This document shows positions 25,477 to 58,800 of a stretch of 64,000 nucleotides of DNA, piece after piece. The position numbers were made by a program, and so were the translations under genes. The notes beneath the pieces are model-generated. The model was not told where the DNA came from. It ran no database searches and saw only the letters and a list, made by a program, of their open reading frames with translations. The stretch comes from a virus (Duplodnaviria; Heunggongvirae; Uroviricota; Caudoviricetes), in IMG/VR virus record IMGVR_UViG_3300033143_002040, positions 35,712 to 99,711 of that record, one strand, 5' to 3'. Numbering within the stretch: position 1 is the first letter of the stretch; the number at the start of each line of letters is the position of its first letter.

Positions 25477-25727
25477 CTTTAGGTGAAATAGTAAATAAGC
25501 GTCAACTTGACCTTAGACTTGAAAAGGCAGAAGCAGAATTGCAGTCTGCCTTAAGAGTGCTTGACTACTTGCTAAAAGAATCGGCCGCGACATTGTTTGG
25601 ATATGAGCGTAAGCCGAATCATAAAGAACGTTGTTATGCTAACGCCAAGTCACTTGACGTAGCACACGAAAAAATTGAGAAGTGTAAGAAAGAATTGTTT
25701 CAATTCAAATTGAAACACGGTGAATGA
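25473..25727 (+). CDS. small protein with KEYFKKKLxG-like C-terminus
   Basis: ...CKKELFQFKLKHGE. Confidence 0.4.
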   Translation: MTLGEIVNKRQLDLRLEKAEAELQSALRVLDYLLKESAATLFGYERKPNHKERCYANAKSLDVAHEKIEKCKKELFQFKLKHGE

Positions 25728-25737
25728 GAGAAGAAAG

Positions 25738-26991
25738 ATGGCTAAGAAAATACAAAATTATGAAGTAATGAAAGGTTTGTCTGGACAAGGCATTATCAAG
25801 TCTTGGACAAAGGGCGTTCCGTTTGAGTCACAAGCGCGGGATCAGCTAAAGAATATTGCATCGTTGCCGTTCATCCACAAGCATGTAGCAGCGATGCCTG
25901 ACGTACATTTAGGTAAGGGCGCGACGGTTGGGTCAGTAATTGCAACTAAGGGTGCGATTATTCCTGCTGCGGTAGGAGTAGATATTGGTTGCGGAATGAA
26001 TGCTGTACGACTTTCGTTGAAAGCTGCGGATTTGCCTGACACATTAACAAACGTGCGCGGAGAAATTGAGCGCATGGTTCCTGTTGGTCACGACTATCAC
26101 ACACGTTCGCGTATGGGATCAAAGTGGCACAACAAGACTGACAAGCTTTTGAACAACACTAACCAGCAGTTAGACCCAGGAATGCGGTCGATTCTTGCAA
26201 AGCATCCTACGATTGGTAAGATAGGTCGTGACTTTGAAGATCGCGCATACCGTCAGATTGGTACGCTTGGTGGTGGTAATCACTTTATTGAACTTTGCTT
26301 AGACGAGGCGGATGATGTTTGGGTAATGCTTCACTCAGGTTCACGTAATCCAGGAAACTGTATCGGCAACTATTTCATTCAGCTTGCTAAGAAAGAAATG
26401 GAACGATTCTTCATTCAGCTTCCTGATAAGGATTTAGCATACTTGGCCGAAGGCACAGAGTACTACGATGATTATATCGAAGCTGTTGGCTGGGCGCAAG
26501 ACTTTGCATATCGTAATCGACAGGTTATGATGGAACTTGTAATCATGGCACTGGAGCGCAAGCTGCCGCCGTTCTTGATTACTAAGGAAGCAATCAACTG
26601 TCACCACAACTATGTTTCGATGGAGAATCACTTCGGTGCGAATGTACACGTAACTCGCAAGGGTGCTGTACGTGCGCGTGTAGGCGACTACGGAATTATT
26701 CCAGGATCAATGGGTGCTAAGTCATTCATCGTTCGCGGACTTGGTAACAAGGATTCATTTAACTCTTGCTCTCACGGAGCAGGACGTTCACATTCACGAT
26801 CAGCGGCTAAGCGATTGTTTACAGTCGAGGATCACGAACGAGCTACGGCAGGTGTTGAGTGTCGTAAGGATGCTGGTGTGCTTGATGAGACACCTGCTGC
26901 TTACAAGGACATTGATGCTGTTATGAATGCTCAGAGAGATTTAGTTGAGATTGTTCACACGTTGAAGCAAGTAGTCTGCGTAAAAGGATAA
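25738..26991 (+). CDS. rtcB: RtcB RNA 3'-phosphate ligase
   Basis: MPDVHLGKGATVGSV, GVDIGCGM, GGGNHFIEL, CHHNY, HGAGRS motifs all present and in order. Confidence 0.9.
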   Translation: MAKKIQNYEVMKGLSGQGIIKSWTKGVPFESQARDQLKNIASLPFIHKHVAAMPDVHLGKGATVGSVIATKGAIIPAAVGVDIGCGMNAVRLSLKAADLPDTLTNVRGEIERMVPVGHDYHTRSRMGSKWHNKTDKLLNNTNQQLDPGMRSILAKHPTIGKIGRDFEDRAYRQIGTLGGGNHFIELCLDEADDVWVMLHSGSRNPGNCIGNYFIQLAKKEMERFFIQLPDKDLAYLAEGTEYYDDYIEAVGWAQDFAYRNRQVMMELVIMALERKLPPFLITKEAINCHHNYVSMENHFGANVHVTRKGAVRARVGDYGIIPGSMGAKSFIVRGLGNKDSFNSCSHGAGRSHSRSAAKRLFTVEDHERATAGVECRKDAGVLDETPAAYKDIDAVMNAQRDLVEIVHTLKQVVCVKG

Positions 26992-35196: not shown

Positions 35197-35757
35197 ATGA
35201 TGAGTGATACATTAATTTTAAACGCAGATGGCAACCCGTTATCGGTAGTTCCGATTTCGGTTGTTTCATGGATGACAGCAATTAGGCTTGCTTACCAACA
35301 TAAGGTACGAGTTATTAGTTCGTATGAAGATTGGGAAGTGCATTCACCTAGCTGCACCTGGCAGGTTCCGTCGATTGTTATGTGTACGGAATTTGTGAAG
35401 TGGAGCAGGCAAGTCAAGTACAATCGCAGCAACATTTTGCTACGAGATATGTACACCTGTCAGCTTTGTGGTGCTAAGCCGCCTGCGAGTCAGTTAACTC
35501 TTGACCACGTAGTTCCTAGAGTTCACGGTGGTAAGACGAACTGGACTAACATCGTTGCTGCATGTAAGAAGTGTAACCACGACAAGGGTCACAACAAGAA
35601 GATTCGTCCTAAGAGGCTTCCGACTAAGCCGAACTATTACGAGCTAATGGCAAAGAGGATGAAGTTCCCAATTACGATTCGTGATCCAGAATGGCTAACA
35701 TTCCTAGCATGGCCTGAGGATAAGATCGAGATTCGCCCTCCACGGAAGGTTGCATGA
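35197..35757 (+). CDS. HNH nuclease (McrA/HNH-family)
   Basis: CQLCGAKP...LDHVVPRVHGGKTNWTNIVAACKKCNHDKG. Confidence 0.8.
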   Translation: MMSDTLILNADGNPLSVVPISVVSWMTAIRLAYQHKVRVISSYEDWEVHSPSCTWQVPSIVMCTEFVKWSRQVKYNRSNILLRDMYTCQLCGAKPPASQLTLDHVVPRVHGGKTNWTNIVAACKKCNHDKGHNKKIRPKRLPTKPNYYELMAKRMKFPITIRDPEWLTFLAWPEDKIEIRPPRKVA

Positions 35758-37128: not shown

Positions 37129-37674
37129 TTATTGTAATGGGACATACGGAGTTGTTCGACGCTGATAAGTGCAACGATCATACAGAAGGTCTAGTTGTGT
37201 ATCATGCATTGGAAATACTACGCCGCTATCAACGATATGCCAATCCTCTATAAGTGGTGGAGGGAAATATGCATCGCCATCAAATTCTTGATGAATAACT
37301 GTAGCATAAATTTTCTGCGTATGTGGCATAGCTTGCTTATAAATCTCTGCGCCTCCAGCGATCATTATTTCATTATCTTTTGCAACGAGTTTCGCTGCAA
37401 ATATTGCTTTAGATACTTCGTGAAATATCTTAACATCTGGGTGATCTACAGTATAGTCTTTATCTCTAGTGAGCAAATATGTTGTCCGACCCATGAGAGG
37501 TCTATATTTTTCAGGAATTGATTCATACGTCTTGCGACCCATTATAACAATTTTGTCCATTGTTACTGCTTTGAAATATTCTAAATCTTCTCGTATGTAC
37601 CAAGGAATTTCATTTCCTGATCCGATAACGAAGTTGTGAGAAAAGGCTACAATTATACTTACAGTCATATACAT
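37129..37674 (-). CDS. frd: dihydrofolate reductase
   Basis: VIGSGNEIPW, IMGRKTYESIP, LLTRDKD, IAGGAEIY motifs. Confidence 0.85.
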   Translation of the reverse strand: MYMTVSIIVAFSHNFVIGSGNEIPWYIREDLEYFKAVTMDKIVIMGRKTYESIPEKYRPLMGRTTYLLTRDKDYTVDHPDVKIFHEVSKAIFAAKLVAKDNEIMIAGGAEIYKQAMPHTQKIYATVIHQEFDGDAYFPPPLIEDWHIVDSGVVFPMHDTQLDLLYDRCTYQRRTTPYVPLQ

Positions 37675-40170: not shown

Positions 40171-40359
40171 ATGGAAATCGTATTAGCATTTTTTGTTTTA
40201 TCAATAGTAGCGTTCGTCTACTTTATCCCTACCATTGTCGCGTTCATGCGAGGACATCACAATCGTTGGCCGATTGCAGTTCTTAACTTTTTTCTTGGTG
40301 GAACTTGTATTGGCTGGGTGATTGCGTTAATTTGGTCACTAACTGTAGTTAAAGATTAA
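40171..40359 (+). CDS. small membrane protein (62 aa)
   Basis: two TM helices. Confidence 0.45.
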   Translation: MEIVLAFFVLSIVAFVYFIPTIVAFMRGHHNRWPIAVLNFFLGGTCIGWVIALIWSLTVVKD

Positions 40360-41327
40360 TTCTGTTTTAATATTTCTTTAACTGCTTTGTCCAAATCATC
40401 ACTATTAGTTTTACCGTTAAGATTGTCGATCATCCAATCACCAAATTCAACAGTTAGATAATCTGTTTCTGTATAGTCGCCAAACACATGACCGTTGGCC
40501 GCTACCATTCTGTGATTTTCATTTGCAACAACATAGTATTGATCTATAGTAGATACTGAAGGGTATCCTGCGGCTCGTACACGCATCCACTCACCGTCTT
40601 TGCATATAGTGTGCGTTCCTGTTACGTTGACACCGTCAACACCATACCAAGTTTCGTATTTGCCATTGCCTGTTATTGTTTGGTCTACTACGCCGCCCAT
40701 TTCCATTACATCACCAAATACAATGTCTTGAACTTCTTTGAGTGATCCATCTGCCATACGGAATTCTGTACCGTACATAAAACAGCCGCCTCCGCCGCCT
40801 CCGCCGCCGTCGCCAGAGAGTACTCGCCAGTCCATTGCTGCTGTTGCTAGTACAGTAGTTCCTCGTCTAATCTGAAAATCAAATTGTGCGTGTTGTTCAC
40901 CGACACCTGAACCAGAGCCTGCGGAATCAACAAAAGTCCATTCTCTAGTTGTGCCTAGATCAAACCAAGTATCTTCGTCGCCGTCGCTATCACCGCCTGT
41001 CGGCGTGGTTACTGAGTCTATCCAAACACCGCCGCTTGGTGAGATTCCAAATCCTTCATCTTTCACAACCCAATTGAGATTAGTTATGCGTACATCGTAT
41101 GAAGAAGATGCGGCCGTATTAGGAATTATCCAGTCTGTCAATGCTTCAAATTGTACGAATGAAAAAGTACGACGCCAGTTGCATGTGCCGTCTGTATTAA
41201 ACGCTCGGCCTGCCGTACGCATAGCACTAGAGGTACTGCTGTGGTCGAATGTCTGGGCTGTTATAGTAACACCACCTGTAGCAGCAGCAGTTTGAATGCC
41301 GCGATCTCCTGATGAACTAGTAGACAT
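40356..41327 (-). CDS. tail-fibre-associated protein with C-terminal Hint (Hedgehog/intein-like) domain after a poly-Gly linker
   Basis: GGGGGGGGCFMYGTEF...VTGTHTICKDGEW...VVANENHRMVAANGHVFGDY. Confidence 0.7.
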   Translation of the reverse strand: MSTSSSGDRGIQTAAATGGVTITAQTFDHSSTSSAMRTAGRAFNTDGTCNWRRTFSFVQFEALTDWIIPNTAASSSYDVRITNLNWVVKDEGFGISPSGGVWIDSVTTPTGGDSDGDEDTWFDLGTTREWTFVDSAGSGSGVGEQHAQFDFQIRRGTTVLATAAMDWRVLSGDGGGGGGGGCFMYGTEFRMADGSLKEVQDIVFGDVMEMGGVVDQTITGNGKYETWYGVDGVNVTGTHTICKDGEWMRVRAAGYPSVSTIDQYYVVANENHRMVAANGHVFGDYTETDYLTVEFGDWMIDNLNGKTNSDDLDKAVKEILKQN

Positions 41328-42943
41328 TATACTGTAATCTCACTACCCCAGATGTAAAAAGTATCAGCAGCAAAACGATACAAAGTTGCTACTCCGCCTG
41401 CACCGATAGTACATCCGCCTACTGTATCTGTACTTCCTACTCCTGGTTCAAGGTAGAATAGCGTTGCTGTACCATCAACAATAGTATAGTCTGTAGCTGA
41501 ACCATTTACAATAGATGTTACACCACCAACTGGAAAATCTGTTGTTCCGCTTCCCTCAAGAGTTAATGTGTGCGCTGCGCCGTCACTATGGCCTGTTAAG
41601 TGTCCGCAATGTCGTGCTTCCAATGCATCAGACGTATCCCAATTAAATTGTGGTAATGTATTGAAACCAATATCAAGCCATGTTGTATCATCATGCGCTC
41701 GAATTTGTGCGCTTGATGAGTTGCCTGTAGCTGCTCTATCCTGTGTTCTTAACGCATCATCACCAGTCCATTCTATAGTAACTGCGCCTGCGGCTGCGAT
41801 CCTTGGAGTTGTAATTTCTGTTACGAATACTGGACTATTATGTAATGCAAATGCTGATCCTGTACCTGTTGCAGTTGTTACGCCAGTGCCGCCACGAGTT
41901 GTTGCTAGCGTACCTGTGTGCGTACCAGAGCTTAAATTCAAAGCTGTAATAAGAGATCCGTCGCCAGCGAAAGCTGCTGCATTTAATTGGCCTGCGCTTG
42001 CATTATAAGATAGTTGTCCGCCGTCTATGTGTGGTAGCTGATTTGTTGCGCTGTTTGCTGTTACTAAAACTGGATATGTAGTTGTGTCACCGCTATCGCC
42101 ATCTATACTATTAATTGTAACATTAGTTGCATTAGAGGCTGTTGTTGCAGTTGTAGCTGTGGCTGCGTTGCCTACCAATGAGCCATTAAACGTACCTGTA
42201 AAAAATAATGTTACCAAAGTAGATGTTGCAGCATTATAAGTTAATCCGCTTGCATATAATGGATCTTGTAGTGTGCCGCCTGAAGTAGCTGCCTCATCAC
42301 CTACAAGCATAATGTTTGTTGTTGTATCAAGTGTCGAGGTTGTGTCTAGAATAACTTGGCCTGCCGATACCGATGGCGAAATCCAAGTATAGTTGTTTGA
42401 CAAATCAGCCGACAATACATAACCTGTACCTGCTGCGTTTGCTGGTAATGCTGGCTCTGCGCCGTCTGCTAATACACCTTGACTTGCTGTTGCAAATGCA
42501 GTAGCATGTAGACCATCAACTTGATCTGCATTTAAGTTTGAAACTACTGTATTGCTGTTAACAGTAATCGGCGCGCCTGCTGCTGAAAATACAGGCGCAC
42601 TAGTAAATGTTTTTACATCAGCAATAGACTCTGCACCTGAAGTATGAACTACATCAATGTCAAGTGGGATTTTATTCCAAGTTGAGCCGTCAAAGAGATT
42701 TAGGCGACCCGTACTTGGAGTGCTGTCAAACCAAAGTTGGCCTTTAACTCTCGTTGTTCCGAATGCTGGAGCAGTAGTGTTAGAAAAGTTTTCTAACTGC
42801 CTTAATTGCCCTGAGACAAAATCATCACCATAATTAATAGCGTCTTGTCCGATGAACGGAATATCATATTGATTGTTAATTGTTCCTGTTTGAACATTAA
42901 CTGTAAACGTTCCGTCTGATGATGTTACATTATAATCTGCCAT
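41327..42943 (-). CDS. tail fibre protein (Thr/Gly/Ala/Ser-rich), shares its N-terminal domain with 43642..45405
   Basis: MADYNVTSSDG...GQLWFDSTPSTGRLNLFDGSTWNKI; low-complexity fibrous body. Confidence 0.7.
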   Translation of the reverse strand: MADYNVTSSDGTFTVNVQTGTINNQYDIPFIGQDAINYGDDFVSGQLRQLENFSNTTAPAFGTTRVKGQLWFDSTPSTGRLNLFDGSTWNKIPLDIDVVHTSGAESIADVKTFTSAPVFSAAGAPITVNSNTVVSNLNADQVDGLHATAFATASQGVLADGAEPALPANAAGTGYVLSADLSNNYTWISPSVSAGQVILDTTSTLDTTTNIMLVGDEAATSGGTLQDPLYASGLTYNAATSTLVTLFFTGTFNGSLVGNAATATTATTASNATNVTINSIDGDSGDTTTYPVLVTANSATNQLPHIDGGQLSYNASAGQLNAAAFAGDGSLITALNLSSGTHTGTLATTRGGTGVTTATGTGSAFALHNSPVFVTEITTPRIAAAGAVTIEWTGDDALRTQDRAATGNSSSAQIRAHDDTTWLDIGFNTLPQFNWDTSDALEARHCGHLTGHSDGAAHTLTLEGSGTTDFPVGGVTSIVNGSATDYTIVDGTATLFYLEPGVGSTDTVGGCTIGAGGVATLYRFAADTFYIWGSEITV

Positions 42944-42956
42944 TTTCTCTTAGTCC

Positions 42957-43640
42957 TTATGTTGCGTCTGCGTCTATTACTATGGTTGCTGTGTCTAAAA
43001 CTGGGCCTGTTCCTTTTCGTATAGAAATGATACCGTCCCAATATTCACTATCGCCGTAGCCAGCACCTACTGTCCAACTGCATCTGTGGTCAAATGCTGC
43101 ATTGCCGTTAAATGTTGCGCCGGTTCCTGAACCACTTGTTGCAACACTAGAAATTGGATCAATAGGTAAAATGCCATAATCACCTGTGTGTGTAAACGTT
43201 AGTCCTGTTATTGCGCCGCCTGATACAGATGATACAGTTGCCTGTACTGGCGTGTCATATGTTCCGCCTACCCATTCAATCGTATCATTAATATTATAGT
43301 TTATTCCGCCGCCTACGATTGACCAACCGAAGCCTAAATATGCTGTCGCATTAGTCCATACTTCTGCGGCTGGGCCGCTCGGAGTGACTGAGCCTGTTCC
43401 TGTGTTTCGCTTCAATTGATATACAGGATTTCCAGGTGTAGCATCGACTGGATCAATCCAATTATACACAAACGTATCACCAGAATTACCTTCAAGACAC
43501 CACATTTGCCCATATGAATAGAAAATGGCCGTAGCAACGGCTCCAAATGCGCCAGCATCAGAACAAAACATATTTTCTAAATTAACCATTCCGCCTGCTA
43601 CACTAGCTGCGGTTGTAGTATCGAAGTGAATAAAACTCAT
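42957..43640 (-). CDS. tail-fibre-module protein (228 aa; start MSFIHFD)
   Basis: internal start directly after upstream stop; G/T/S-rich. Confidence 0.55.
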   Translation of the reverse strand: MSFIHFDTTTAASVAGGMVNLENMFCSDAGAFGAVATAIFYSYGQMWCLEGNSGDTFVYNWIDPVDATPGNPVYQLKRNTGTGSVTPSGPAAEVWTNATAYLGFGWSIVGGGINYNINDTIEWVGGTYDTPVQATVSSVSGGAITGLTFTHTGDYGILPIDPISSVATSGSGTGATFNGNAAFDHRCSWTVGAGYGDSEYWDGIISIRKGTGPVLDTATIVIDADAT

Positions 43641-43641
43641 A

Positions 43642-45405
43642 TTATGATATTCCGTTGCCCCAAATTTGCCAATTTGAAGCTGACTTCTTGCGTAGAGTAA
43701 CAATACCGTTGTAAGCAATTGTTCGTGTGCCAATGCTTGGTGCAGAGCCACTTCCGTCAACCCACTCTAAGTCAGTGATTGTTCCTTCTACTATCGTTAA
43801 CGTGCCTGTTCCATGATCGTTATGTACTACTAACGAACCACCAACAGGAATATCTGTATCAAGATCAAGTGTTATGATACGAGAAGTAGACGCACTCCTT
43901 CTTAGGAATTTACCAATGTCATCAGAATCAACCGTGCGCGCACTTGATACAATTGATTCTGGTGTTTCGTTAAAGCCTACGTTACGTTCTAAACCACCAG
44001 AATCACTGACACCAGCAGTTGTCGTAACATTTGTACCTGTAACTGCGTGGAGTGTCATAGCTTGAACGCCACCCTGAGTTACCGTCGTTTCAGTAGGATC
44101 TAGATTCATAACTAGTGTGTTTGCTGCATACAAATTTAGATCATCTACTAAAGCATTGACTTCACTAAAGCTGCTGCCGCTGCGAGTTCCCATGCGTATC
44201 ATCGTCTGGCCGTCATCGTTGTGATTTACAGAAACGAAGCCTTCATTGGTGCTGTTAGCGTTTGTAGTACCGAGTACTTTTACTTCTCCGCCGCCAGAAC
44301 CTGTTACTCCACTAAAGATTGTTGTATCAACCTTAAGACCGCCAGAGAATCCTGTAATGTTAAAGTCTACTGCTGTAGCTGCAACAATATCAAAGTCGCC
44401 CGAAGCACTATCAAAATCTACTGCAACATCGTCACCAGTGCCAAACAAAATCTTATCATTGTCTTGTAGATCAAGGTCACCATTGAATGTAACTGTAGCA
44501 GAGAATGTTGTTGCTGCTAATGTTCCAGGTGCAGAACGATCAATGAGGTTAGCTTCTAATATGCTACCGATGTTTGTTGCTGATAGGTTTGATCCATTCC
44601 ATGTTAATGCACCAGCAGTATCAATCCAATCACCACCTGAGCGATAAAGTAGATCATTGTCCACTGCACCAGCTAAAGTAACGTCTGTCAAGTCACTGAA
44701 TATCGAGACTCCTGCTGAACCTGCTACCCAACTTGGGAGACCTGCTGCTAATGTTAGTACATCACCGTTTGTACCTATTACTAATTTTGTTAGAGTATTG
44801 GCGCCCGATGCATATAAAATATCACCAGCCACATATGATGTTAGTCCTGTTCCGCCGTATGTTTCATCTAGTTCTGTTACTAGTGTTAGTTCTGGTAGAT
44901 TAACTATTGAAACACCTGTGACATTTATATCAGCAGTCGATGTGCCAACGATATTAAGGTCTGTATCATCGTGTGAAAATGCTATAGAGTTTCCTGGAGT
45001 CGGGCCAATAATAGCAAGCGAACCAGATCCATTAATTGTGATTCTCGTATCTTCTGTATACTTTTTATTTGTATCGTCCCATCGTACCACAGCAGATTCA
45101 AGAGTACCAGTATTAGTATTTGCTACTTGATCCCATGTCGAGCCATTGTAGACGTTAAGGGATCTCGTTGCTGCTGTAGTATCGTACCATACTTGACCTG
45201 TTGCTCTACCTGCAGAACCTGTTGTTGGTGCTGATGTATTCGCAAAGTGTTCTAGCAACCAATAAAATGACGTTGCTACATCTAGTCCGTAAGAAACTGC
45301 ATTCTGACCGACTAGCTGTAGATCAGTCTGCGTATCAGGAGATACCGCGTCTGCAATCGCTGGGCCAGGGTTGCCGTCTGATTTTGTTATGTTATATGTT
45401 GCCAT
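43642..45405 (-). CDS. tail fibre protein (587 aa)
   Basis: MATYNITKSDGN...GQVWYDTTAATRSLNVYNGSTWDQV N-domain; fibrous repeats. Confidence 0.7.
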   Translation of the reverse strand: MATYNITKSDGNPGPAIADAVSPDTQTDLQLVGQNAVSYGLDVATSFYWLLEHFANTSAPTTGSAGRATGQVWYDTTAATRSLNVYNGSTWDQVANTNTGTLESAVVRWDDTNKKYTEDTRITINGSGSLAIIGPTPGNSIAFSHDDTDLNIVGTSTADINVTGVSIVNLPELTLVTELDETYGGTGLTSYVAGDILYASGANTLTKLVIGTNGDVLTLAAGLPSWVAGSAGVSIFSDLTDVTLAGAVDNDLLYRSGGDWIDTAGALTWNGSNLSATNIGSILEANLIDRSAPGTLAATTFSATVTFNGDLDLQDNDKILFGTGDDVAVDFDSASGDFDIVAATAVDFNITGFSGGLKVDTTIFSGVTGSGGGEVKVLGTTNANSTNEGFVSVNHNDDGQTMIRMGTRSGSSFSEVNALVDDLNLYAANTLVMNLDPTETTVTQGGVQAMTLHAVTGTNVTTTAGVSDSGGLERNVGFNETPESIVSSARTVDSDDIGKFLRRSASTSRIITLDLDTDIPVGGSLVVHNDHGTGTLTIVEGTITDLEWVDGSGSAPSIGTRTIAYNGIVTLRKKSASNWQIWGNGIS

Positions 45406-45413
45406 TGTTCGTA

Positions 45414-46106
45414 TTAACTCCTAGTCTTCTCATTTATTTTCTGTGATGTCCAACCCTTAAATCCTTTGTGGACTGATTGGAAGGGTAAATTATTGTCTCT
45501 ACAATATTTACGTAAATTTTTAATCTGTGCTGTCTTGCCTTGTGGATCTGTGACGAGCCAATTACATGCTAATTTTTCTGCTTGTTTTTGTCGGGCTATT
45601 TTATTTTGTGACAGCAACCTAGCATTCTCACCAAATATTTTTCTCGCGTTGTCTGTAATAACACGCGATTTCCACGCTTCTTTTAATGCTTCTCTATGTG
45701 CTTCACTTTTTGGCTTGCCTTTTAAGGATGCAGAACGTTTAGCCTTTATAGCATCCGCATATTCTTTTCCATATCGTTCTTCGTATGTTTTTCCTTTGTA
45801 CAATACAGACATATTTTTTGCATGTTTTTCTCTCAACCATGCATAAAGTATATTACCTGTGCGTTCTTTCTGTTTCCCAGATGTCATCCTGTGTGCTGCA
45901 AATATAAGTTTTCTATTGTGAGGATATATCTTTACAAGCAGTAAGTGAGCTACATAATGTTCCCTTGCAGTCAATATTGAAATATTGCTAGGATCATCGC
46001 CACCGCCCATACACTTCGGAACGATATGATGTCTCTCAGTATATCCATCAAGCACACGATCTTGCGTTCTCTCATTCAGCCTGTTATAGTGTTCTATATA
46101 ATTCAT
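45414..46106 (-). CDS. HNH homing endonuclease (free-standing, copy 2) inserted in the tail-fibre operon
   Basis: HHIVPKCMGGGDDPSNISILTAREHYVAH; ~60% identical to the 20254 copy over the first 75 aa. Confidence 0.8.
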   Translation of the reverse strand: MNYIEHYNRLNERTQDRVLDGYTERHHIVPKCMGGGDDPSNISILTAREHYVAHLLLVKIYPHNRKLIFAAHRMTSGKQKERTGNILYAWLREKHAKNMSVLYKGKTYEERYGKEYADAIKAKRSASLKGKPKSEAHREALKEAWKSRVITDNARKIFGENARLLSQNKIARQKQAEKLACNWLVTDPQGKTAQIKNLRKYCRDNNLPFQSVHKGFKGWTSQKINEKTRS

Positions 46107-46880: not shown

Positions 46881-49800
46881 TTAGGGTGAAAGGGAAATTG
46901 GCAATGCGTTGCCTTCTTCTAATTGTATAAATGCTGCTGCTACTGTAGTTGCTGCATTCAATCCACCTGGGAGTGCCCTATCTAGTACCCAAGTCACACC
47001 GTAGTTTTCACTGATTCTGCCTTCTTCATTAATAATATCTCCGCTTAAGGCAAGAACTACGCCTTCAAGATTTGTAGTTACTGAAATCTGTGCGTTGCCA
47101 TCGCCGGCGCCAGAGATAGTGAATGCTGCGCCGCCTGGAGTATACCCCGTGCCTCTGTCTACAATAGTCACATATAATATGCTGCCATCATCGTAGACAC
47201 CACCAACTTCTAGTACTGCCGGTGTTGCTGATGGGCCTAGTGCACCTTCAAGGGATGCTACTGATATAGTATCTCCGACTGAATATCCTGTGCCAGCTAT
47301 ATCAACAGTAATTATGCTAACTTCACCAGAAGCAATAAGGTCTTTAATGAAATATGAATTTTGAATTTGTGAATTAAACGCTGTTGTGACACGCAATGTA
47401 TCACCAACTACTACACTATCAGTAGTAACAAATGTTGTTTCTACAACATCAGCAAAGTGTACATTACCGTTGCCATTATTAATCCATATGCCGCCTGTAG
47501 CTGCGCCTGATTGATATGATGTTGTCGCACTATTAACCCAATAGATACTTGAAGCTGGAATTACTTGATCTGTGCCGCCGTCAAATACTTTCGATGCTAT
47601 TTGATGAGTTTGTGCGTGTGTACCTTGTGTCCCACGTACCACGCCAGTTAGTTGATTAGCGCCGACATTAACACCATGATATTCAATGCGTTCTGTACCA
47701 ATCCAAGCTATTTGTGGATCATCTAGTGTTGGAGTTGTTGAATACAAATTCGTCACTAAGGTGACTGGAATCAAATTATCAGTCAGTCCAAGTGTTGCTG
47801 TTAATGCTGTGCTTGCACCATCCGCATAACGATGTGAAGTTAAATTCTGTTGCGTATCATGATGGATACGATATGACAATGCTGTTAGCGTAAACGTTGC
47901 ATTGACACCAGACGCATCTGCTGTTGTTGCAAATGGACTCGTTGGATATACAAAGTAATCACCTTGATTTGTTACTGTAAATGTAGCTATTGGGCCAGGA
48001 GGTCCTGACGATGTTGTTACAACATCTATTGTGAGTGGCGATCCAAAATCATCTTCGTTATTAGTATCAGGAGTAATTGAGAATCCTGTTGCTACAACTG
48101 GAGGATCTAATGGTACAAACTGCGTAATAGATATTTGAGACAAGATAGTAGCTGACTGGAATCCGAGTCCGCTAGCAGTTGTAACTGTGAAGTCAGTAAC
48201 ATCTCCGTTAACGTCAACTGCATCAACTGTAACTGTTGTTTGGTCAGTCATTGTAATAATGTCGCCTACAACATACGCTGTGCTTCCGACAGTAAGCGTA
48301 GCTGTTGTATCTTCTGTATTAGTTTTAACTGCATCATTTATAGATAGCGTAATGACTGTAGCTGTTACATTAACAATAGTATATGTACCATCATTCTCAC
48401 CTAGGTTCTCTGAACCTGTAATAATAAGTTTCTGTCCAGAAGCAAATCCTAACGTATCAAACGCTGTGCCGCCAGTACGAGTAATTGTATCTGAAGTGTT
48501 TGATCCGTCAAACGCAAGACTTTGACTGACTACTGGAGCAACACGAATAACTTCTGCACCATCACCGCTTGTGAATGTTCCGTTGCTACCAACACCATCA
48601 AAATCAGTTTCATCTTGTGCTGCAATTGTTGTTTGTAGTCTGACACCGCCCGTAGCTGTTAGTGTTTCACCTACAGCATATCCTGTTCCTGCTACCGTGA
48701 GAACAATGTCTGTGCTATCAGCAATAACAATCAGATTCTCACGAGGATCTAGCGGTACCATTTCTTCTGAAATACCTGCAGTAACTTGCGGATTAATAAG
48801 ATCACCAGCTTCAATGTATGTAAAGATTTGAATATTATCTGTTCCCGTAGATGGTGCTCCGAATGTTCTGAATCCAGTTACATCTTTTACTGATACAAAT
48901 GTTAGTGTTGTTCCTATAAAGAAGTAATCAACATTAAGCACTTGCTCAATATCGTCTACAACAACAAACATGAAGAACGTTGGTACTGTAGATAAGATTT
49001 CAAATTCTTTCGTGCTACTGTTACCACTAAATGTTTCTTCTGATGGAATATTTGCAAACGTTCCTTGAGTTGTATTTGCCGTTCCTGTTGTCAACACAAA
49101 CCCTATACCTGCATCATTAGATGATGCTTGTAAAATTGGGTCGCCGGCAATAATGAATGCCGTACTACCGCCAGTAAGTGTAAAGCCAGTGACAACACCT
49201 GCTGCCACAACATCAACGGTAATATTAGAACCGTTATTACTACTCGGACCATCTTGCATAATGATTGTATCGAATCCTGCTAGCTGTGCAGTAGTGTCTG
49301 GAGGTGTCGAAGTATTGACTAATACATCTGAGGTAGATAATGTAATAACAGTAGCAGTAACATCAACGATAGTATATGTACCATCATTCTCGCCTGTATT
49401 TTCAGATAGCGTTACAATAAGTCTTTGACCCACTGTAAATTCGCCAGCTGTATTAAACGCCGTACCATCTGTACGCGTAATCGTATCTGCGCCACCTACT
49501 AATGCGAATGTTAACCCTGATGTATAATCATTAGATCCTGTATTCGCTTTGTATCCTGAGCCGCCAGCGAATGAACCATTCGGGAACACGCCGTCATAAT
49601 TAGATTGCGTGCTGCCAGGAACAGTAGTTGTCAAGTCATCAGGTGAGCCGTCAAGTGTAGTAACACTCGGATCATTAACTGAAGACTCGAATCCAATTTG
49701 ATCCCACGGAGTTGTATCGTGAGGTACTGATGATCCATTCTCAAAGACTAGTGCTGTTAACTGTGCACCAGATCCTGATCCACCTAGTAGATCAACTGGA

Positions 49801-52800
49801 TCTATTGTTGGAGTTTGGATATATGAACCGCCATCAATTAAATCAAGTGCTGTAATAACTGTACCAGCTTCTGCGCTTACGCGGAACTGTGCGTTACTAA
49901 CGGGCGTACCTGATCCTGCATCAAGTTGTAATATATCTCCTACTACATAACCTGAGCCACCATCAAAGAGTGTATAACTTCCTAATGTAGGCAGACCACC
50001 GAAAGATGTATTCTGTAAGAATGATCCTTGATAGTCAAAGAAGAACTCTGATGTGATAGCAGTATTAATTAATGCTACAGCTTCAAGCTCCTCTGTTGTA
50101 GTTGGATTGCCGTTCTGGGCAGGGTCAAATTCTGCAAGCGTTGTACCCGTATTAGGAAGCGGTGTTTCTAATACATCTATTGCTGTTCCGTTTATATATC
50201 CGCTACCAGAGTTACTTATGAATAGATTTGTTATGACTCCTAAAATAATGTCATATGTGATTTCACCTGTTCCGTTGCCGCCGCCCGCTGTAGACGTAAG
50301 AGTAAGTGTAACTCCTGTGTCATTTGTATAACCTGTGCCGCCAAATCCAGGAGTTACTATGTTCACAGATACAAGTTGTCCGCCAGCTACATCAACAGTA
50401 ATATCTGCTGTGATGCCTCCTGTAGGTGCTTGAATATCTGCAAGTTCTGTACGATAATTATTAACTGCTCTGCCTGCTGCACCTAGACGTACAAAAACTG
50501 TACCATTGTCTAATGTTGAGTATCCTTTGTAAGAACTGCTCTGACTGTTTTCGAACTTAGCAATACGCATTTCTGTAACACTCAAGTCACCACCACGAAT
50601 TTGATCGTACACCATAAACGATGTTATAGTGCGAGACTGTTCTGTTGCTTCGCCCTCAGCTAGATCAAGTTCTGTTGCGCGAGTCACACGGAAGTCACGT
50701 ACCTTTGTTTGATACGGCTTAGCTTCTGTGATATACTCTAGCGCACTATCGAACGGATCTTCTTGGAATACACGAGGTTGTGATAATGTTTGTCCTGTTT
50801 GATCTAGGAAGATATATGTTGATTTGAATGCCCAATCAAGATCATCCTGTTCACTAAAGACATAGTTCAACATAGCAAAATATACTAAGTTGTTATTCAC
50901 AACTAATTCATTCACAAATACTTCTGTTTCTATCGCTAGTATAAGTTCACGCAATTCAAGTGCGGTTGCTAAAGATTGATCGGTTGTGTAAATTGTACTC
51001 AATAGATTCAGCCTGCTTGCTTCACGCATAATCAATGTGTATAATTCTGTGTCAGAGCTATACTCATACAAACTAAATCGCGTTCCTATTACTTTTACAA
51101 TATCTCCATCAAGCGGATTAAGTAGCAACACTAAATCACTAGTATCATCTACTTGTCGAATTGGAGATGAGTTAGTCTCATCAAATCCTTCGAGGTACCA
51201 ATCTACCCATTCCCAAAGATCATTAGTGGATAGTGTTGCATTCCATAGTGGATTTTCGTCACGTAGAATAATGCTTTCTGTTAGTTGATTTATTTTATCT
51301 ACATATACTCGTCGTGCATCAAAGATGTCAAAGAACATAGTCTGCATAGGTCGTGTACGTATACCTAATTGATTTGCTGCACTCAATGTTGGATCAGGTA
51401 CAACTAAGTATCCCATAGTTGGATCTGCTGCTGTTGGCAATGCATTGTTAAAGTTATTCAATGCAAGACTCTCAACAGTCAACTTGTGAACTTCTGGCAA
51501 TAGTGGTAATGCTGGAGTTGCTACCGAAGCTATATTTACTCTAGTAGCTGGGTTCGGCACACCGAACAATGGATTAGCTTGGCGTGCTTGGCTATGTACA
51601 TATACCGATGTAGAATCTATTACTTCTATATAATACATAACACCATCTGTTAAACCGATAGTATCAATGCCGCCTGCCTTAGAATAGCGCGCACCATTGC
51701 CATTAGAGAATCCGTGTTCTGCTTTAAACGTAATAGCTTCTGTTCCGCTATCTATACCAGACGTATCTGTTGCTCCAACTGGATCAGTATTGAATTCTCC
51801 AATATCATCTGTATATGCTTCTGTACCAATTGGTATCGGAACAGTATATCCTACAAGAGAATCAACCGTCTTGTCCCAGTGTATATTATTAATAACGTAG
51901 CTAGGATCATTCTCACGACCTAACTCCCATTCAACGTGTGTTGGTCGTTCATCATCACTACGGCGGAAGTTAATTTGGAATACGTTATCACTATCTGTGA
52001 ACACTCCGTCCACACCAGAGAACATGAAACCTGACTGACTAACTGGGCTGAACCATTGATATAGATTAGCTGCTGGATTGCTAATAATACTTGCAACTTC
52101 AAATGCAGCGATTGTTCTATTAACACCACCTGGAATTTCTGTGCGATCCTTGACCCAGAAGTAATAATATGTAGCTACTCTTTCAAGAATCGGATCCCAC
52201 TCTTGTAATTCAGTGTAATTAGTTAAGCTACGTACTATTCCGTCACCCGTGTATGCAGTTGGCAGACTTGTACTACGTGTCCATTCATAGACATCCACAC
52301 TTGATCCTGAGAATAATTTGCCCCAATTATCTCTGCGGTATTCATCAGTACCTTGCTCGTAATGTAGATATGCACTTGTGCTTTGATCCCACCATAGCAA
52401 GCCAACTTGATCACCGTCAAAGGCTAAGTCTGCGCTAACTAGTTTAGCTGCATCGTCTACTGATGCATTAGTGTATCGTGCAGGATCACGTTGACTCTTC
52501 CATGTAATGTTTAGATCAGCAGTACCTGGGATAATTCCCTTGAACGGATCATAAACTGGGATTTGAGCTAGTGTATCCTTAGTATCATTCTCATATACAA
52601 ATGCATTTTCAAATTTATATGTTTCAATGTATTCTGCTTCTATGCGTAATGCATTATACGAATATAATACTCCAGCAGGTGACTTAATGACAGATGGTGA
52701 AAGTACATGCTCGAATCCACCGTTACGAATAAGATCAGTAGGTGTTACTCGCAAATAGCCTCGCTCGCCTTCTGGGAAACCTGTTCCGCCAAAAATGTCT

Positions 52801-55800
52801 GTTATTGTCCAGAATCCATTATTGCTATCAGATATGATTTCAACAAGATCACCAATATCAAATATTGCATCAAAGTCTACTGCCGCAGAGTTATCAACAA
52901 TTGTTTCTGCTGCTGCGGTTTCAGTAATAGAAATCTCCATTGAATCATCATCTGCATTAGTAGTAGTCAATGACGTTGAGAGGGTAATAACTGTTGAGGT
53001 GACAGTAAGAATATCATGTATGCCATCATTACCTGCGTCTTCAGAATTACTTATTGTAATTTCTTGAAGTGCTACAAAAAATCCAGGATCATCAAACGGC
53101 GTGCCATCTGTTCTTGTAATTGTATTTGCGCCACTGTCAATCGCTAGCCCTGCGCCACCACCTGCCCCACCAGTTGCATTCCAGTCGTTTAATGCTATGA
53201 ATGCAGTTTGCTTACTTGCTGGAACATCAGTACCAAGAATACTTGAACCAGAGCCAATCGACAATGATTCATCTAAGAAAAGACCAACTGCAGGTGTTGC
53301 TGTAGTAATAAATTCACTAGCTGTCCATACTGTATTTAATGCTGCGCCTGTTATTGTACTTGCAATTGTTTCAGATACTAATGTATCATCTGCTATCAAA
53401 GTAATTACGAATGGTTCAACACCGCTCGTTGCAATAGTATATGTACCATTGTTAGATACTGTACCTGTAATAGTAATCGTTTGTCCCTCAAAGAATCCTT
53501 CTGAAACAAACGTAGATGAGCCGCCTGTACGTGTTATCGTATCAGGGTTGTCATCTGCGAATATTAGTGTCGCTGCATCAGATGTAGTGACTGGGCTGTT
53601 TTCACCATCAGTCCAAACAATTAGATCATTCAGTGTTACATTATCTACGTCTAATGATTGTGACCCGAATAGAGCTAATGTTGATTCAAAGATTCTACGC
53701 TCCCCGATTGTACGGAAACGCAAATTCATTAACGTAAAGTATTCTGTATCATCTGCAAGAATGTTATCCTCAATAGGTTCACCGTCCTTGCTTAAGGTAT
53801 AAGTTGAACCACTGACAAGTACATAGTCATACAAAACATTGTTTGCATAAATTTGTCCTTCGTTTCTAATTGAGTTGCCCATGTAGCGACGCCAGCCTGT
53901 AGGTTCTATAATATCATCAGAACTAACTACAATGCCATCATCAAAGAATGTCAAGTCAACAGTAGCTCCTGTGCCTCCTGAAGGAAGAACTGTAGTAGCT
54001 GCGCCTGATGCAGTTGGCAGCGATGCATCATTTGAGTATTCGCCGCGTGTTGTAATCTCTACACTAAACACTTCTTGATTAAGTCTTCCTAGTGTTAGTG
54101 AGAAGTTTACACCTGTACCGTCTGAGCTTGCTTGCGCAATTGTATCTAGGTCAGTTGTAATACCTGCTGTCGTTGCAGTAGTTACTGTGAATTCAGAAAC
54201 AATACCTGTTGTGGGCGTTACTTGTACGTTGTCTACATCTAGTGTTAGTGTGAAGCCTGCTCCGCCCGAAGGTGGTGCTTGTCTAGGTGCTAACACTTCA
54301 TTATTAAATATTGTTGTAACTGTACTAGCAGAGATAATTTGGAAAGCAGTAATTGGTGCGCCAACTACTGGTGTAACAAACGGATCACCTGCGCCTGTGA
54401 CTTGTACAACAGTACCGTCTGACATTGTTATTATATCGCCAATGAGATAATCAGTACCTGCTGTGAATGTACCTTCTGTCGTTGGAGAGTTATCAAAGTC
54501 TGCTTCAGTTTGCAATGCAATTGTTGATACAGTTGCATTGTCTACAGTAATAGTAGAGCCATCTGTTAACGTAATTATATCCCCAATGTCGTGACCTGTG
54601 CCGCCTGCAAACGTACCTTCATCTAATGTTACACCATCGAATAATAGATAAGTTTGTGAAGCTATTGTAGCTACTTCATCAACTGTCAATGTTGCACCTA
54701 CTCCTGTACCACCGACTACTGTTAATACATCATCTATGCTATAGCCTGTTCCACCTGCTGCTACTGTTACTGTATCAATAGTAACGTAGTATTCAGAACC
54801 TGTTGAACCTACTTTAACATTTGCTGTTGCAATACTACCGAAAGCATCAACTTGATACTCAATGATTGCATTGCCGTTGCTAGATGGTACTGTGTTTGAT
54901 GTAATAGTAAACTCTGCATCTCTAGTATAACCGAAGCCGCCACCAATAACTGTTACTGCCTCGACTACTTCGCCGTCTACATCAATTGTGAACTGTGCTT
55001 CGATCAAGTCTTCACGAGGAATACTTGTTAATGTTACAAGACCATCGTCTTCTGCTGCAGGAGTTTGCGTTAGTGTAGCACCTATTCCTAATAGATCACT
55101 ACCGCTTTCTTCGTTTGCAATTCCTGGAGTTAGTGTAAAGTCATTGTTACCTAGACCATTCGATGATGCTGTTGTTAATGTTGTGTCCGCACGCGCTGCG
55201 AATGATGTTTGACTCGCTAATGTAATATTAAACGTTACTACTGCGCCACTAGAAACAGTATTTACTGTGACTTGTGTACCATCGCTAAGAGTAATAATCT
55301 CTGTAGCAACATATCCTGTGCCGCCAAAGAATGTACCATTCGGACTTACGTTATCAAAGTCTGTATTAACTTGTCCAAGTATAGTAGAACCCTTATAGCC
55401 ATCAAGTCCATACACGCCAAATTCTTCGCGTGCATCGCGTGCCACCCAGATCGTCTGACCGTGCTTGCTTGGAACCGTTGCTGCTGTAGCTAATGAATCA
55501 ACATCAGCCTCAGAGAATGATTGGAAGTTAGCATCTTCACTGTGTACATAGCCTGCGTTCGTAGTATTATATGTATCTAATACATCATCAGGCCATACCT
55601 CGCCTGCAACGTCACATGCAACACCACCTGGTTTTGTAATCCAGCGTGTCTCATCATCAATGTCAATAAGAATTGCACCATTTGATGGATCATCTGTAGC
55701 GACATCAAAGCTAATACGTGCCGTTGCTCTATCTGCTAATGCGGATATAACTGGCAAGCCTATTGCAACTTGTGGCGGTTGACTGTAACCAGTACCACCT

Positions 55801-58800
55801 GTCAATATATCAATACGCAATATCGAACCATCTGTGTCTAAGATAGATACTGCTGTAGCACCTGAACCTGTTGTATCGTCAGGATGATTAGTAATGAATA
55901 CAGTTGGCGCAATTGTATATGTATTAGCTGCGCTAACAAGATCAATCTCTGTAACTACACCTGTTGGGAATGCAGTTAATGTATGCGCAGTACCAACGCC
56001 AGTGCTTGTCAAGTCGATGTGAATTGGCGTAACTGATGTTGCATCTGATTTTGTTAATGCGAATTGGAATCTATCCTCATCAATTACAATGATATAGTAT
56101 TCTGTATCGTCAAGTAGTCCGCCAACAACAGTGCCGCCACCTGCACTATATGTCTTAGGTGCGCCGCTTCTGTAATTGTGATTATCAATCGTTACTAGAT
56201 CACCACGAACTCCGTCAGGATCGTCATCCGTAACTGTAACATCATCTACGCTATCGAATGCATAAGTAGGCGGAACTGATTCTGTTGCAGGGTATGCGAG
56301 TTGAACCAACTGTGGATCAACTTTAACTTCATCTGCTGCAATCAAGAACTCTGTAAAGTTATTAACACATACTGCACCAAAGCTATCGAGTCTCAATGCC
56401 CATTCTTCAATGATAGTTAGATCATTGTCAATGTCTGTAACAAGTTTGTTACGCTCCATCTTCTCAACAGCTTGTCGTGTACCCTTCTGTCGAACCATAC
56501 CCTGATAGAACTGATACTGTGCATCATCTAGAATACCTAGATCAGTAAAGTAATCGCGCTCGTCAAAGCCGATTAAGTGACGCGCAGTTTCTTCAATAGC
56601 AGGATTGTCTAGTACGACTTCTGTATTGTGATAGTTACGAATACTGTCTACCATGTTCTCATAGTTAGGTAGCAAACCGTTAGCTGTAATAATGAATCCT
56701 GCAGCTTCAAGCTTACCTGTCCATTCGCGAGTACGACGACCTCTAAAGTCTAGTCGTGCTAGTCGTGAACCAAGAACTGGATCGTACAATGTATCGTTGA
56801 ACACAGTTACGTTATCGAATGTAACGATGTTCTCTGTTTCGCGAGTGATCGCATGTAAACCATAGATACCTGTCTGTTCTATATCAGGCTCTAGTTCTAT
56901 TCTGCGATCTACACGATTAATGATTGTATTGATAGGATCAATAGCAACACCATTCTTATCTAGAACAGCGTATACACCATTGATGACTTGCTCTACATTA
57001 TCAACATAACCTTCTTGAGCTATAAGTATAGCCTTCTCTGCCATCGGAGATAACTGTATAATAGAGTTTTCTTCCCATTGAGTACCTACCCAGAACAAGA
57101 AGTCCTTTGCTGCTTGTACCCAGTTGTTAATTGTATTGTTAGCTGAGTTGACTGTTTCGAACGTCCAACCTGCATTCGTTTGTGCTTCGCCTAATCCTAC
57201 TAAGAAATCGAAGACTTCCTGAACACCATTAAATTTATGGCCGTATGGAATTGCGACTTCTGAATTTGCACCAGTTACCTTGTAGGTAGCACTCACACCT
57301 CCAGTGATTGGAAGTTTGTTTAGCTTCAACCATTTGTCAGCTTCAAACGTATCTGCTTGATGCGCTTCTATACAACGATAGAATATACCATTTAGTCTAG
57401 CAATCATACCTAACATATATGAAGTACCAATTGCAAACTGAATGAATGTCTCAGGCTGACCACCTACTGTTACGTCTTGATCTGCTGCTGATATAACTCG
57501 CGGAACTATAATGAACTCGGCCGCCGTAACATCGTAGCCAAATACTTGATACTGGTCATCAGCTAATGCACGAACAAGCGCGCCACTGTATACATAGTCT
57601 GTAACTGGCGCGCCTGTGTACAATGCTACGTCAATGTTCTCTGCTGGCACAAGTAAGTTACTTGCTTGCGAAGTAACACTGATACCTTCTACGAACACTT
57701 TCATAGTATCTTTGTTAGTAAACGCGGCCATCTTGTGGCCGAGCTTAACGTCTAGTGTACGAAGAAGGTTTCCGAAGTCTACTGTAACATCTTTCTTCAA
57801 TGACTTAAGCCGACCAGCAATCCATACTTGATAACCAGTCTGTATCTGAGCCACGCCACTCACTACTTCACCGTGTACGTATAACGTACTGTTTCCTATA
57901 CGTTTAAAGATACCTGCATCACTAGATACAATCTGTTCATTGTCAACTGGCACTTCATAAATATGTTCTGGATCCCAAAACTTCTCACCGAACTCACCTG
58001 GTCGAGCAAGAAACAATGCTTCTGCTACTGCGAACGGGAATGATTCCGATGTTTCCCAAGCATACTCTACTGGTGCTTTATCAGTCCAGTCATAATCTGC
58101 AGCCGCATCACTAGCACTCGGATCTACCAAGCTTGCGGACGCGTCGATACAAAGCAAAGGCGAAGCCTTTAAAGCGCCGAGGACATCTACAGGAAGATGA
58201 TCCGCAACTAAGTCCGTCCTAGCATAACGTGTATCAACGTATCCTAACACGATTTCTTCCGTAGCTATATCTACTTGACGCCTTACATACCCATTCTCAA
58301 GATCACTCCACATAGCATTAGTTGACACATAAGGAGCAGAGCCATAGCCTGTGAAGTTATCTCCAAACAAAGCTAACTCTTCCGCACCATCATCACCAAC
58401 TAATAATGCTGTACTCTCCCACCAATCAGGTATAGCAGAGAAACCTAGCATCTCCCATGGAGTAGTATCAGGTGTCTGTGAGTCGTAATAGTAATCGAAT
58501 ATACCTCTCCAATAACCTGGCAGCAACTCACCATCTACATCTACTACTGTCTTATAGTTCCAAGTGAATGGATCTAATGCATCATAATAACCATTAGTAA
58601 TGTAATCAGCTTTATTTGACGATACCCACTTATAGAAAGACTGTTTAATCAAGTCTTGTAACTCACTTAGCTCCCATCGTGTAGAACGGAACTTACCAGG
58701 CTTATACGTATCCATTTCCAAAGGTATCGTGTAATTTTTTCGGAACCCTTCTATAATACCATTGTATATACGTGTCTCAAACTCTAGTAGTAATTCATCT

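Follow-up and report, generated by a model that had tools for sequence, protein, structure and literature searches.

A putative self-cleaving Hint module at the C-terminus of a fibre-associated protein from a large uncultured tailed phage

In a 64,000-nucleotide stretch of tailed-phage DNA (the window; positions 35,712 to 99,711 of IMG/VR record IMGVR_UViG_3300033143_002040), a minus-strand gene that we call the Hint gene encodes a two-part protein of 323 residues (34.8 kDa). Its N-terminal half, the N-domain, is presumably the mature form of a fibre-associated accessory protein; its C-terminal half is a Hint domain followed by a short conserved tail, and the two are joined by a run of glycines. 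We consider it probable, at roughly 60%, that the protein cleaves itself between Gly181 and Cys182 through a thioester, and that hydrolysis then releases the Hint-plus-tail portion as a self-removing assembly module. Coordinates of all features are collected in Table 1.

The protein's C-terminal portion is a Hint domain. An earlier note on this DNA, made from the sequence letters alone, had placed such a domain in the last ~140 residues, and structural comparison, profile links and conserved blocks all bear this out for the final 142, which start at Cys182. An AlphaFold2 model of the protein, built from an alignment of the family, has a mean pLDDT of 72.6, with values of 78–86 across most of the Hint domain. 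The best Foldseek match to this model in the PDB is BIL2 of Tetrahymena BUBL1 (6y75, E 1.5e-5); further matches are Vint (8r2c), the Prp8 and NrdJ-1 inteins, Hedgehog (1at0) and PI-SceI, and every PDB match with E<0.02 is a Hint domain (probability 1.0, E 1.5e-5 to 1.4e-2, TM ~0.5 on the target). Against BFVD, 47 viral proteins match at E<=1e-3, and many of those with names are called "Hint domain containing protein." Run against PDB sequences, the protein itself and a profile of 20 homologues gave marginal matches only, to the first ~50 residues of the PI-SceI/VMA intein. A TNF-ligand match in the PDB sequence search was rejected as an artefact of an engineered GGGGS linker.

Curated models respond more faintly. 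Pfam, searched with the single sequence, returns Hom_end_hint at E 0.0037 and Vint at E 0.13, each aligned from Cys182 at profile position 1, so that Hint profiles do match, in both cases below threshold. There is no Pfam match at E<=1 to PF01079 (the Hint module of Hog proteins) or to Hint_2 (PF13403), the Pfam scan gave no match to PF07591 (PT-HINT), the NCBIfam scan was empty, and neither Pfam nor NCBIfam has a model that covers the Hint-plus-tail family. At the level of sequence profiles, the module can nevertheless be linked to curated Pfam Hints transitively. A profile of the module (A2) aligns with a profile of the upstream Hints from tandem-Hint relatives (A4) at an hhalign probability of 98% (E 1.8e-13), and A4 members exceed the Pfam thresholds for Hom_end_hint, Vint and Hint.

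The characteristic features of the Hint superfamily are in place: the fold, a cysteine at position 1 of block A, and the TxxH of block B. Residues 173–183 read D-GGGGGGGG-C-F, GGGGGGGG being eight glycines, and Cys182 opens block A (C182-FMYGTEFRMADGSLKEVQDIVFGDVM, residues 182–210 in a global alignment with Hints that terminate in His-Asn). Block B is T236-G237-T238-H239; a TxxH motif assists the acyl shift in Hint domains. Block F (Y264-YVVANENHRMVA, residues 264–276) is followed by a block-G-like segment (N278-G-H-V-F-G-D284). An insert of ~45 residues that His-Asn-type Hints have between blocks B and F is missing, and the domain is therefore very compact, its 103 residues making it shorter than the matched mini-intein and Hedgehog chains (140–150 residues). 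From the block-F Tyr to Asp284 there are 20 residues, equal to the spacing from Tyr to the terminal Asn in His-Asn-type Hints, which places Asp284 at the intein C-terminal Asn position and Gly283 at that of the penultimate His; this equivalence is based on the weaker evidence of a global MAFFT alignment together with the equal spacing, hhalign of A2 against His-Asn-type Hints having aligned block A only. The C-terminal His/Asn region described in the earlier note is thus not the canonical terminal His-Asn, which is absent, but Gly-Asp (Thr-Asp in most relatives) and then Tyr. In the 39-residue tail that comes next, two helices are predicted (295–303 and 309–322, pLDDT 51–64 in the AlphaFold2 model), and some homologues have longer, charged helical tails after the Hint.

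Conservation bears on whether such a domain is active. Eighteen close full-length homologues, all metagenomic, are 52–65% identical to the protein and have the same architecture; for wider counts we used 242 distinct related domains and 277 family junctions. The nucleophile Cys and the Phe that follows it are each present in 239/242 domains. In block B, the [ST] position is kept in 236/242 and the His in 239/242. A family Trp and the equivalent of Asp284 are found in 241/242 each, the residue before the Asp being Thr in 206/242, and the tail starts with Tyr or Phe in 236/242 and has Glu at the Glu287 position in 223/242. At the junctions, Cys and Phe each occur in 274/277, and the -1 residue is Gly in 203/277 and Ser in 40/277, usually after a Gly-rich linker. 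Judged from the alignments, the conservation of junction and blocks, both in the close homologues and in the wider set, is far beyond chance, and the strength with which Cys, Phe, block B, Asp and tail are kept argues for a catalytically active, not a decayed, domain. The N-terminal Cys-Phe and TxxH blocks noted earlier are thus features of the whole family (~99% of the 242 domains, the block-B [ST] position excepted), and the family counts agree likewise with the Hedgehog-like G|CF junction after the glycine run, here G181|C182-F183.

The module was at first taken to be fused to a tail fibre, a view that did not survive. The ATG of the Hint gene overlaps the TAA of the upstream 538-residue open reading frame (ORF) as TAATG, and the Hint gene is therefore a separate, translationally coupled gene, not the C-terminus of a fibre. 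Its residues 1–172 have no Pfam, PHROG or NCBIfam match, and the fold of the N-domain is a generic Ig-like beta-sandwich with no fibre signature. A match of the N-domain to an rRNA N-glycosidase (E 0.0056) contains a 44-residue gap and was not trusted, and the idea that the N-domain is a paralogue of the neighbouring 227-residue ORF was dropped (BLASTP E 3.6, hhalign probability 0.6%), leaving a positional analogy only. The 538-residue ORF appears fibre-like and is the presumed partner of the N-domain.

The N-domain also exists on its own. Free-standing homologues of 140–200 residues, many of them about 150 long, came up in a profile search (P0295-P0317); they end 2–4 residues from the point at which the poly-Gly of the window protein starts, so that the predicted cleavage product equals a natural stand-alone protein. 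In three ~35-kb contigs, their genes lie directly after a fibre-like gene, with stop and start overlapping; two of the three contigs contain SU10-type portal or adaptor genes, and one of the fibres carries Peptidase_S74. Fibres that precede N-domain genes have in common a C-terminal domain of ~135 residues ending ...IWG[SN], which is found in the 538- and 587-residue ORFs of the window and in ORFs of contigs L001, L110 and L109. The common fibre domain and the N-domain protein encoded downstream thus make up a conserved two-gene cassette, to the second gene of which the lineage of the window has added a glycine run and a Hint.

The module extends well beyond this cassette. The Hint-plus-tail profile matches at least 2,647 clusters (defined at 50% identity) at E<=1e-3, 1,258 of them at <=1e-10, among 1.84 billion representatives, and IMG/VR has 166 loci with the module. 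It lies <=60 residues from the C-terminus in 126/130 full-length representatives, and the median length of what precedes it is 411 residues. Among 185,579 bacterial and archaeal species scanned, there were 21 matches only, weak or partial and mostly confined to the block A part. Sequences and distribution together mark the module as a previously undescribed Hint subfamily, restricted to viruses and with a C-terminal extension of its own. What precedes it varies. In a sister phage lineage, the same locus encodes virion-type Gly_rich_2 proteins of ~480 residues; other cargoes are DUF4815/phrog_358 giants, Listeria-Bacteroides-repeat proteins, glycine-zipper-like peptides and other Hints in tandem. 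The module has kept its position while the cargo was exchanged between sister lineages, and its occurrence on unrelated cargoes is what a portable processing module would look like.

Hint chemistry predicts an N-to-S acyl shift at the first Cys, assisted by block B (PMC7765530, PMC8616854, PMC2362128). In the mechanism that we propose, the precursor would consist of two halves joined by eight glycines: a beta-sandwich partner of the upstream fibre-like protein and a Hedgehog/BIL-type Hint with a 39-residue tail. Once the protein has folded, Cys182 would attack the carbonyl of Gly181, with help from Thr236 and His239. The thioester would most likely be resolved by water, and Asp284 and Glu287 may serve as base. 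The products would be an 18.9-kDa N-domain ending in oligo-Gly, whose C-terminal peptide (non-tryptic) would be ...VLSGDGGGGGGGG, and a 15.9-kDa Hint-plus-tail fragment. The latter would serve once and then remove itself: as a C-terminal module, it would hold the accessory protein, keep it soluble, oligomerise it or mask it until the fibre or virion is assembled, playing the intramolecular-chaperone role of Peptidase_S74 through different chemistry. What we infer is that cleavage takes place and when, which nucleophile resolves the thioester, and what Asp284, Glu287 and the tail do. With a Hint fold, a conserved nucleophile and block B, a G|CF junction, C-terminal placement and free-standing N-domains, an acyl shift and release of the halves is the most economical account. 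Release by hydrolysis is favored because the predicted product equals stand-alone proteins and because one module serves many unrelated cargoes.

Several observations weigh against this account. First, the Pfam scores are below the gathering cut-offs of the curated Hint-clan models (17.7 versus 32.1 bits for Hom_end_hint, 12.5 versus 27 for Vint). Second, the AlphaFold2 model, at a pLDDT of 72.6, is of medium confidence. Third, the fibre identity of the 538-residue gene product is suggested by weak profile matches plus context. Fourth, no cultured phage was found to carry the Hint gene: tblastn against 50,697 isolated-phage records with the full protein and with a divergent Hint variant gave no match, tblastn with two free-standing N-domains gave nothing relevant (one match was to an unrelated N-terminal motif of P0298), and neither did megablast of the 8-kb locus. 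Finally, plain hydrolysis does not obviously need a conserved tail with an invariant Asp and Glu; these elements could point instead to recognition of an acceptor or to a second cleavage.

It is this last point that keeps alive a different fate for the thioester. In a ligation reaction, a specific acceptor would attack the Gly181 thioester, and the oligo-Gly arm would then tie the N-domain to it by a covalent bond, with no need for ATP. Candidates for the acceptor are a lipid, a glycan, and a lysine or the N-terminus of a virion protein such as the fibre, and the tail would recruit the acceptor as the SRR (sterol-recognition region) or ARR does in Hog domains. We regard this as unlikely, though it has points in its favor. 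Structurally, the module is nearest to BIL2 of BUBL1, a domain that joins the C-terminal residue of the domain upstream of it to a Lys epsilon group as an isopeptide (PMC8616854), and the arrangement of G|CF, Hint and a conserved extension at the protein end is that of Hog proteins (PMC2362128). The tail and Asp284/Glu287 are conserved about as well as the catalytic Cys, although simple hydrolysis needs none of them. Moreover, ubiquitin-like proteins have an exposed Gly-Gly end that the flexible Gly8 arm recalls, and the Hint gene is translationally coupled to that of a candidate acceptor, the fibre. Yet the acceptor is hypothetical, and the tail is short and modelled at low confidence. Further, free-standing N-domains function with neither Hint nor Gly tail, so that attachment is not intrinsic to the role of the N-domain, and the occurrence of the same module on very different cargoes argues against a single specific protein acceptor. 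These data do not distinguish hydrolysis from Hedgehog/BUBL-like ligation. The module could conceivably be an ATP-independent conjugation device, used once, that passes the C-terminal Gly thioester of a phage accessory or adhesin domain to a defined acceptor, a viral counterpart of Hedgehog cholesteroylation or BUBL conjugation at work in thousands of virion proteins of marine phages, but on the sequence evidence we find release by water the better supported of the two.

Less probable still is a non-catalytic Hint, kept for structure, oligomerisation or binding and remaining attached, uncleaved, in the virion. Non-processing relatives of the Hint fold do exist, and the Pfam AXH model cross-matches Hint sequences; the lack of the canonical terminal His-Asn and the sub-threshold single-sequence Pfam scores would also fit. 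However, Cys, Phe and the block-B His are each retained in ~99% of the 242 domains, which come from highly diverged proteins, the -1 residue is small (Gly or Ser) in 243/277 junctions, a Gly-rich linker usually precedes the domain, which is C-terminal in 126/130, and the stand-alone N-domains stop at the junction. We consider it very improbable that the module is a mini-intein or a decayed remnant of one, splicing now or formerly and perhaps brought in with the homing endonucleases of this genome: although it resembles inteins in its fold and in blocks A, B and F, and although endonuclease genes lie nearby (45414..46106, phrog_655; 35197..35757, HNH), splicing is ruled out by the lack of a terminal Asn (and of the His before it), of a +1 nucleophile (Tyr or Phe in place of Cys, Ser or Thr) and of an extein, the post-Hint sequence belonging to the conserved module, and moreover the module contains no endonuclease domain, is not inserted in a conserved host protein with contiguous intein-less alleles (Hint-less homologues end at the junction rather than continue past it), occurs on unrelated cargoes, and looks quite different from a true terminase intein (L098) recovered in the same scan.

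How, then, does the Hint-plus-tail module relate to known systems? Hog proteins (Hedgehog; 1at0; PF01079) are alike in layout, with a C-terminal autoprocessing module in a two-part precursor, a Gly|Cys-Phe junction at the start of the C-terminal Hint, TxxH and a conserved extension. The cargo domain also occurs without a Hint, as in the Wart-only and Ground-only genes of nematodes, where N-domain-only paralogues of Hog proteins exist (PMC1636047, PMC2362128). Unlike Hog domains, the window module is viral and only weakly similar in sequence, its Hint is much shorter (103 residues) and ends in a nearly invariant Asp, and sterol is not expected in the bacterial host of the phage. The tail, in which no similarity to the SRR is detectable, may be seen as analogous to the SRR/ARR by position. 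BIL domains, which supply the best structural match (BIL2; 6y75/6tmm), are non-intein Hints in variable, non-conserved proteins; they cut themselves at their ends but do not splice in the classical way (PMC7765530). The window module differs from them in being terminal rather than internal, in having its own conserved tail and in being restricted to viral contigs. The His-Asn at the end of A-type BILs, which no +1 nucleophile follows, is replaced in the Hint of the window family by Gly/Thr-Asp. B-type BILs have the N-terminal motifs of inteins but not the C-terminal one, occur in variable proteins and cleave at the N-terminus; the motif pattern in the block alignment is compatible with them, and there is no PF13403 match at E<=1.

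The comparison with Peptidase_S74 domains of phage fibres and spikes is a functional one: they too are self-removing C-terminal modules on host-recognition proteins. The window protein has no Pfam or PHROG match to Peptidase_S74, and fold and chemistry are unrelated: Peptidase_S74 uses a Ser-Lys dyad in a helical trimer, and the window module would form a thioester on the Cys of its Hint. The carrier differs as well, being an accessory protein and not the fibre. The likeness to self-removing fibre chaperones drawn in the earlier note is nonetheless reasonable, with a Peptidase_S74 fibre preceding one of the free-standing N-domain genes, and a small gene that is coupled to a fibre gene and lies downstream of it can encode a transient cap or chaperone (PMC10579305). 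PT-HINT domains of polymorphic toxins (PF07591) likewise set free a portion of a secreted or delivered protein with several domains, but they precede the C-terminal toxin that they free, whereas the window Hint is followed only by its 39-residue conserved tail. The use of a Hint fold had also been called unusual, which holds in part. UniProt and BFVD already have entries in which non-intein viral proteins are annotated with Hint domains, but we found none characterised in a virion protein, and the open-access literature yielded neither a description of such a domain in the fibres or virion proteins of phages nor experimental work on one.

The glycine run deserves separate comment. The linker (residues 173–180) has a pLDDT of <50 in the model, and the poly-Gly is predicted to be disordered. 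Its codons (GGC/GGA, 40785..40808) lie in a simple repeat, as had been noticed before, which TRF reports as (GCC)10 at 40785..40814, with the perfect 9-bp unit GCCGCCTCC in 2.7 copies. The run is 3–11 glycines long among close homologues, a variation compatible with triplet slippage. With a triplet as the repeat unit, slippage would alter linker length in frame only, so it offers no switch. One homologue, P0020, was considered as evidence for a frameshift at this repeat and rejected: its poly-Gly runs into unrelated sequence, and the contig diverges entirely after the repeat. In that contig (L007, 3040..3269), a normal N-domain with its Gly run gives way to unrelated sequence, in which a lipoprotein-like ORF lies on the opposite strand; the GC-rich triplet repeat probably seeded a chimeric assembly, and metagenome assemblies should be read with caution at repeats of this kind.

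Some of the other cargoes have features of their own. The Gly_rich_2 proteins (L004 10001..11449 and IMG/VR loci L035-L087) contain KVSGxWK repeats and are encoded, in the sister lineage, by the last or next-to-last gene of the block that corresponds to the fibre block of the window. In another group (P0118, P0121, P0152; L061, L066, L069, L074, L077, L080), a glycine-zipper-like hydrophobic segment abuts the Hint Cys, as in ...IGGVIGGVVG|CFLPNT, and P0121 has a weak match to the Gly-zipper region of PdsO. This run of hydrophobic zipper into the Hint Cys suggests that small membrane-active peptides might be released. Poly-Hint proteins (P0187, of 1,285 residues; P0162/P0164/P0168/P0181; L075, L078, L090, L091, L103) have up to seven Hints in tandem with near-invariant "...VHN|K-G(G)|CF..." junctions, the upstream Hints ending in VHN-K. 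Cleavage at both of the flanking junctions would leave, from the stretch between two Hints, no more than a Lys-Gly peptide or thioester.

The DNA polymerase of the window is a T4-type family B enzyme, 40–43% identical to those of the jumbo phages Phosso, Atu_ph07 and Vibrio 2.275.O, which on sequence grounds identifies the source as a large, uncultured tailed phage, apparently of marine type. No tRNA genes were found within the window. The minus-strand virion/fibre block comprises, from first to last, the 5,308-residue ORF, the 208-residue gene, a homing endonuclease, the 587-residue fibre-like gene, the 227-residue gene, the 538-residue fibre-like gene and the Hint gene, beyond which lies a convergent Imm_superinfect gene. 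The gene order around the Hint gene is conserved in related metagenomic contigs, and the convergence is kept in L001-L003, L005 and L006. The giant ORF, scanned as two halves, has no Pfam domain at E<=1e-5; counterparts of >=5,034 and >=4,325 residues occupy the equivalent position in L001 and L004, and the one in L004 has faint CBM_5_12 and FG-GAP matches only. The site of the homing endonuclease is empty of genes in L001-L003, so that, by comparison of the contigs, this gene looks like a mobile element that entered the fibre block recently. The two fibre-like proteins (538 and 587 residues) are 40% identical over their N-terminal ~90 residues and 31% over their C-terminal ~135, with different middles, and PDB sequence searches with both gave no match.

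Table 1. Features of the window, with positions counted from its first letter
Feature	Position	Strand	Remarks
Hint gene	40356..41327	-	323 residues plus stop codon; in the ORF list; full-length homologues syntenic
N-domain, residues 1–172	40812..41327	-	Residues 1–17 disordered, then beta-sandwich; conserved motif TDWIIPN
Linker, Asp173 and Gly174–Gly181	40785..40811	-	GGC/GGA triplets; Gly181 is -1 of the predicted scissile bond
Cys182 codon (TGT)	40782..40784	-	Predicted nucleophile of the N-to-S acyl shift; Phe183 codon adjoins (40779..40781)
Hint domain, residues 182–284	40476..40784	-	103 residues; Foldseek against PDB and BFVD; hhalign; global block alignment
Block B, T236–H239	40611..40622	-	TxxH; aligns with T..H of His-Asn-type, Pfam-positive Hints
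Asp284 codon	40476..40478	-	Aligned to the intein C-terminal Asn; Gly283 (Thr in most relatives) replaces His; Tyr285 next
Post-Hint tail, residues 285–323	40356..40475	-	39 residues plus stop; conserved [YF]-x-E...W...LN[GA]; alignment A2
Imm_superinfect (superinfection immunity) gene	40171..40359	+	62 residues; converges on the Hint gene, stop codons overlapping in a common TTAA
Upstream fibre-like virion protein	41327..42943	-	538 residues; phrog_14394 "virion structural protein," E 1e-5; Pfam BppL_N, E 5.5e-5, sub-threshold
227-residue gene	42957..43640	-	Downstream of the 587-residue fibre-like gene
Second fibre-like gene	43642..45405	-	587 residues; followed by the small 227-residue gene, start overlapping stop
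Homing endonuclease gene	45414..46106	-	phrog_655, E 8.8e-53; weak HNH match; between the 208- and 587-residue genes
Giant ORF	46881..62807	-	5,308 residues; heads the minus-strand block
HNH-matching gene	35197..35757		HNH match
DNA polymerase	96..2855	+	T4-type family B
RtcB-like ligase	25720..26991	+
DHFR	37129..37674	-

If the Hint-plus-tail module is self-cleaving, it would represent a second, chemically unrelated route, beside Peptidase_S74, to self-removing C-terminal assembly modules on phage host-recognition proteins, and one on which a very large family of marine virion proteins that has no name yet (>=2,647 clusters) would draw. The mature virion proteins would then be shorter than gene predictions and would have oligo-Gly ends, which matters for structure prediction, for metaproteomics and for the annotation of receptor-binding proteins. 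A compact Hint of 103 residues that is found on many cargoes could also serve to generate C-terminal thioesters. Were ligation the outcome instead, this would be the first covalent conjugation system of the Hedgehog/BUBL kind in a virus particle. Finally, the Hog-like architecture of cargo, G|CF junction, Hint and tail is extended here to bacteriophages, which bears on the origin of the Hog domains of eukaryotes.

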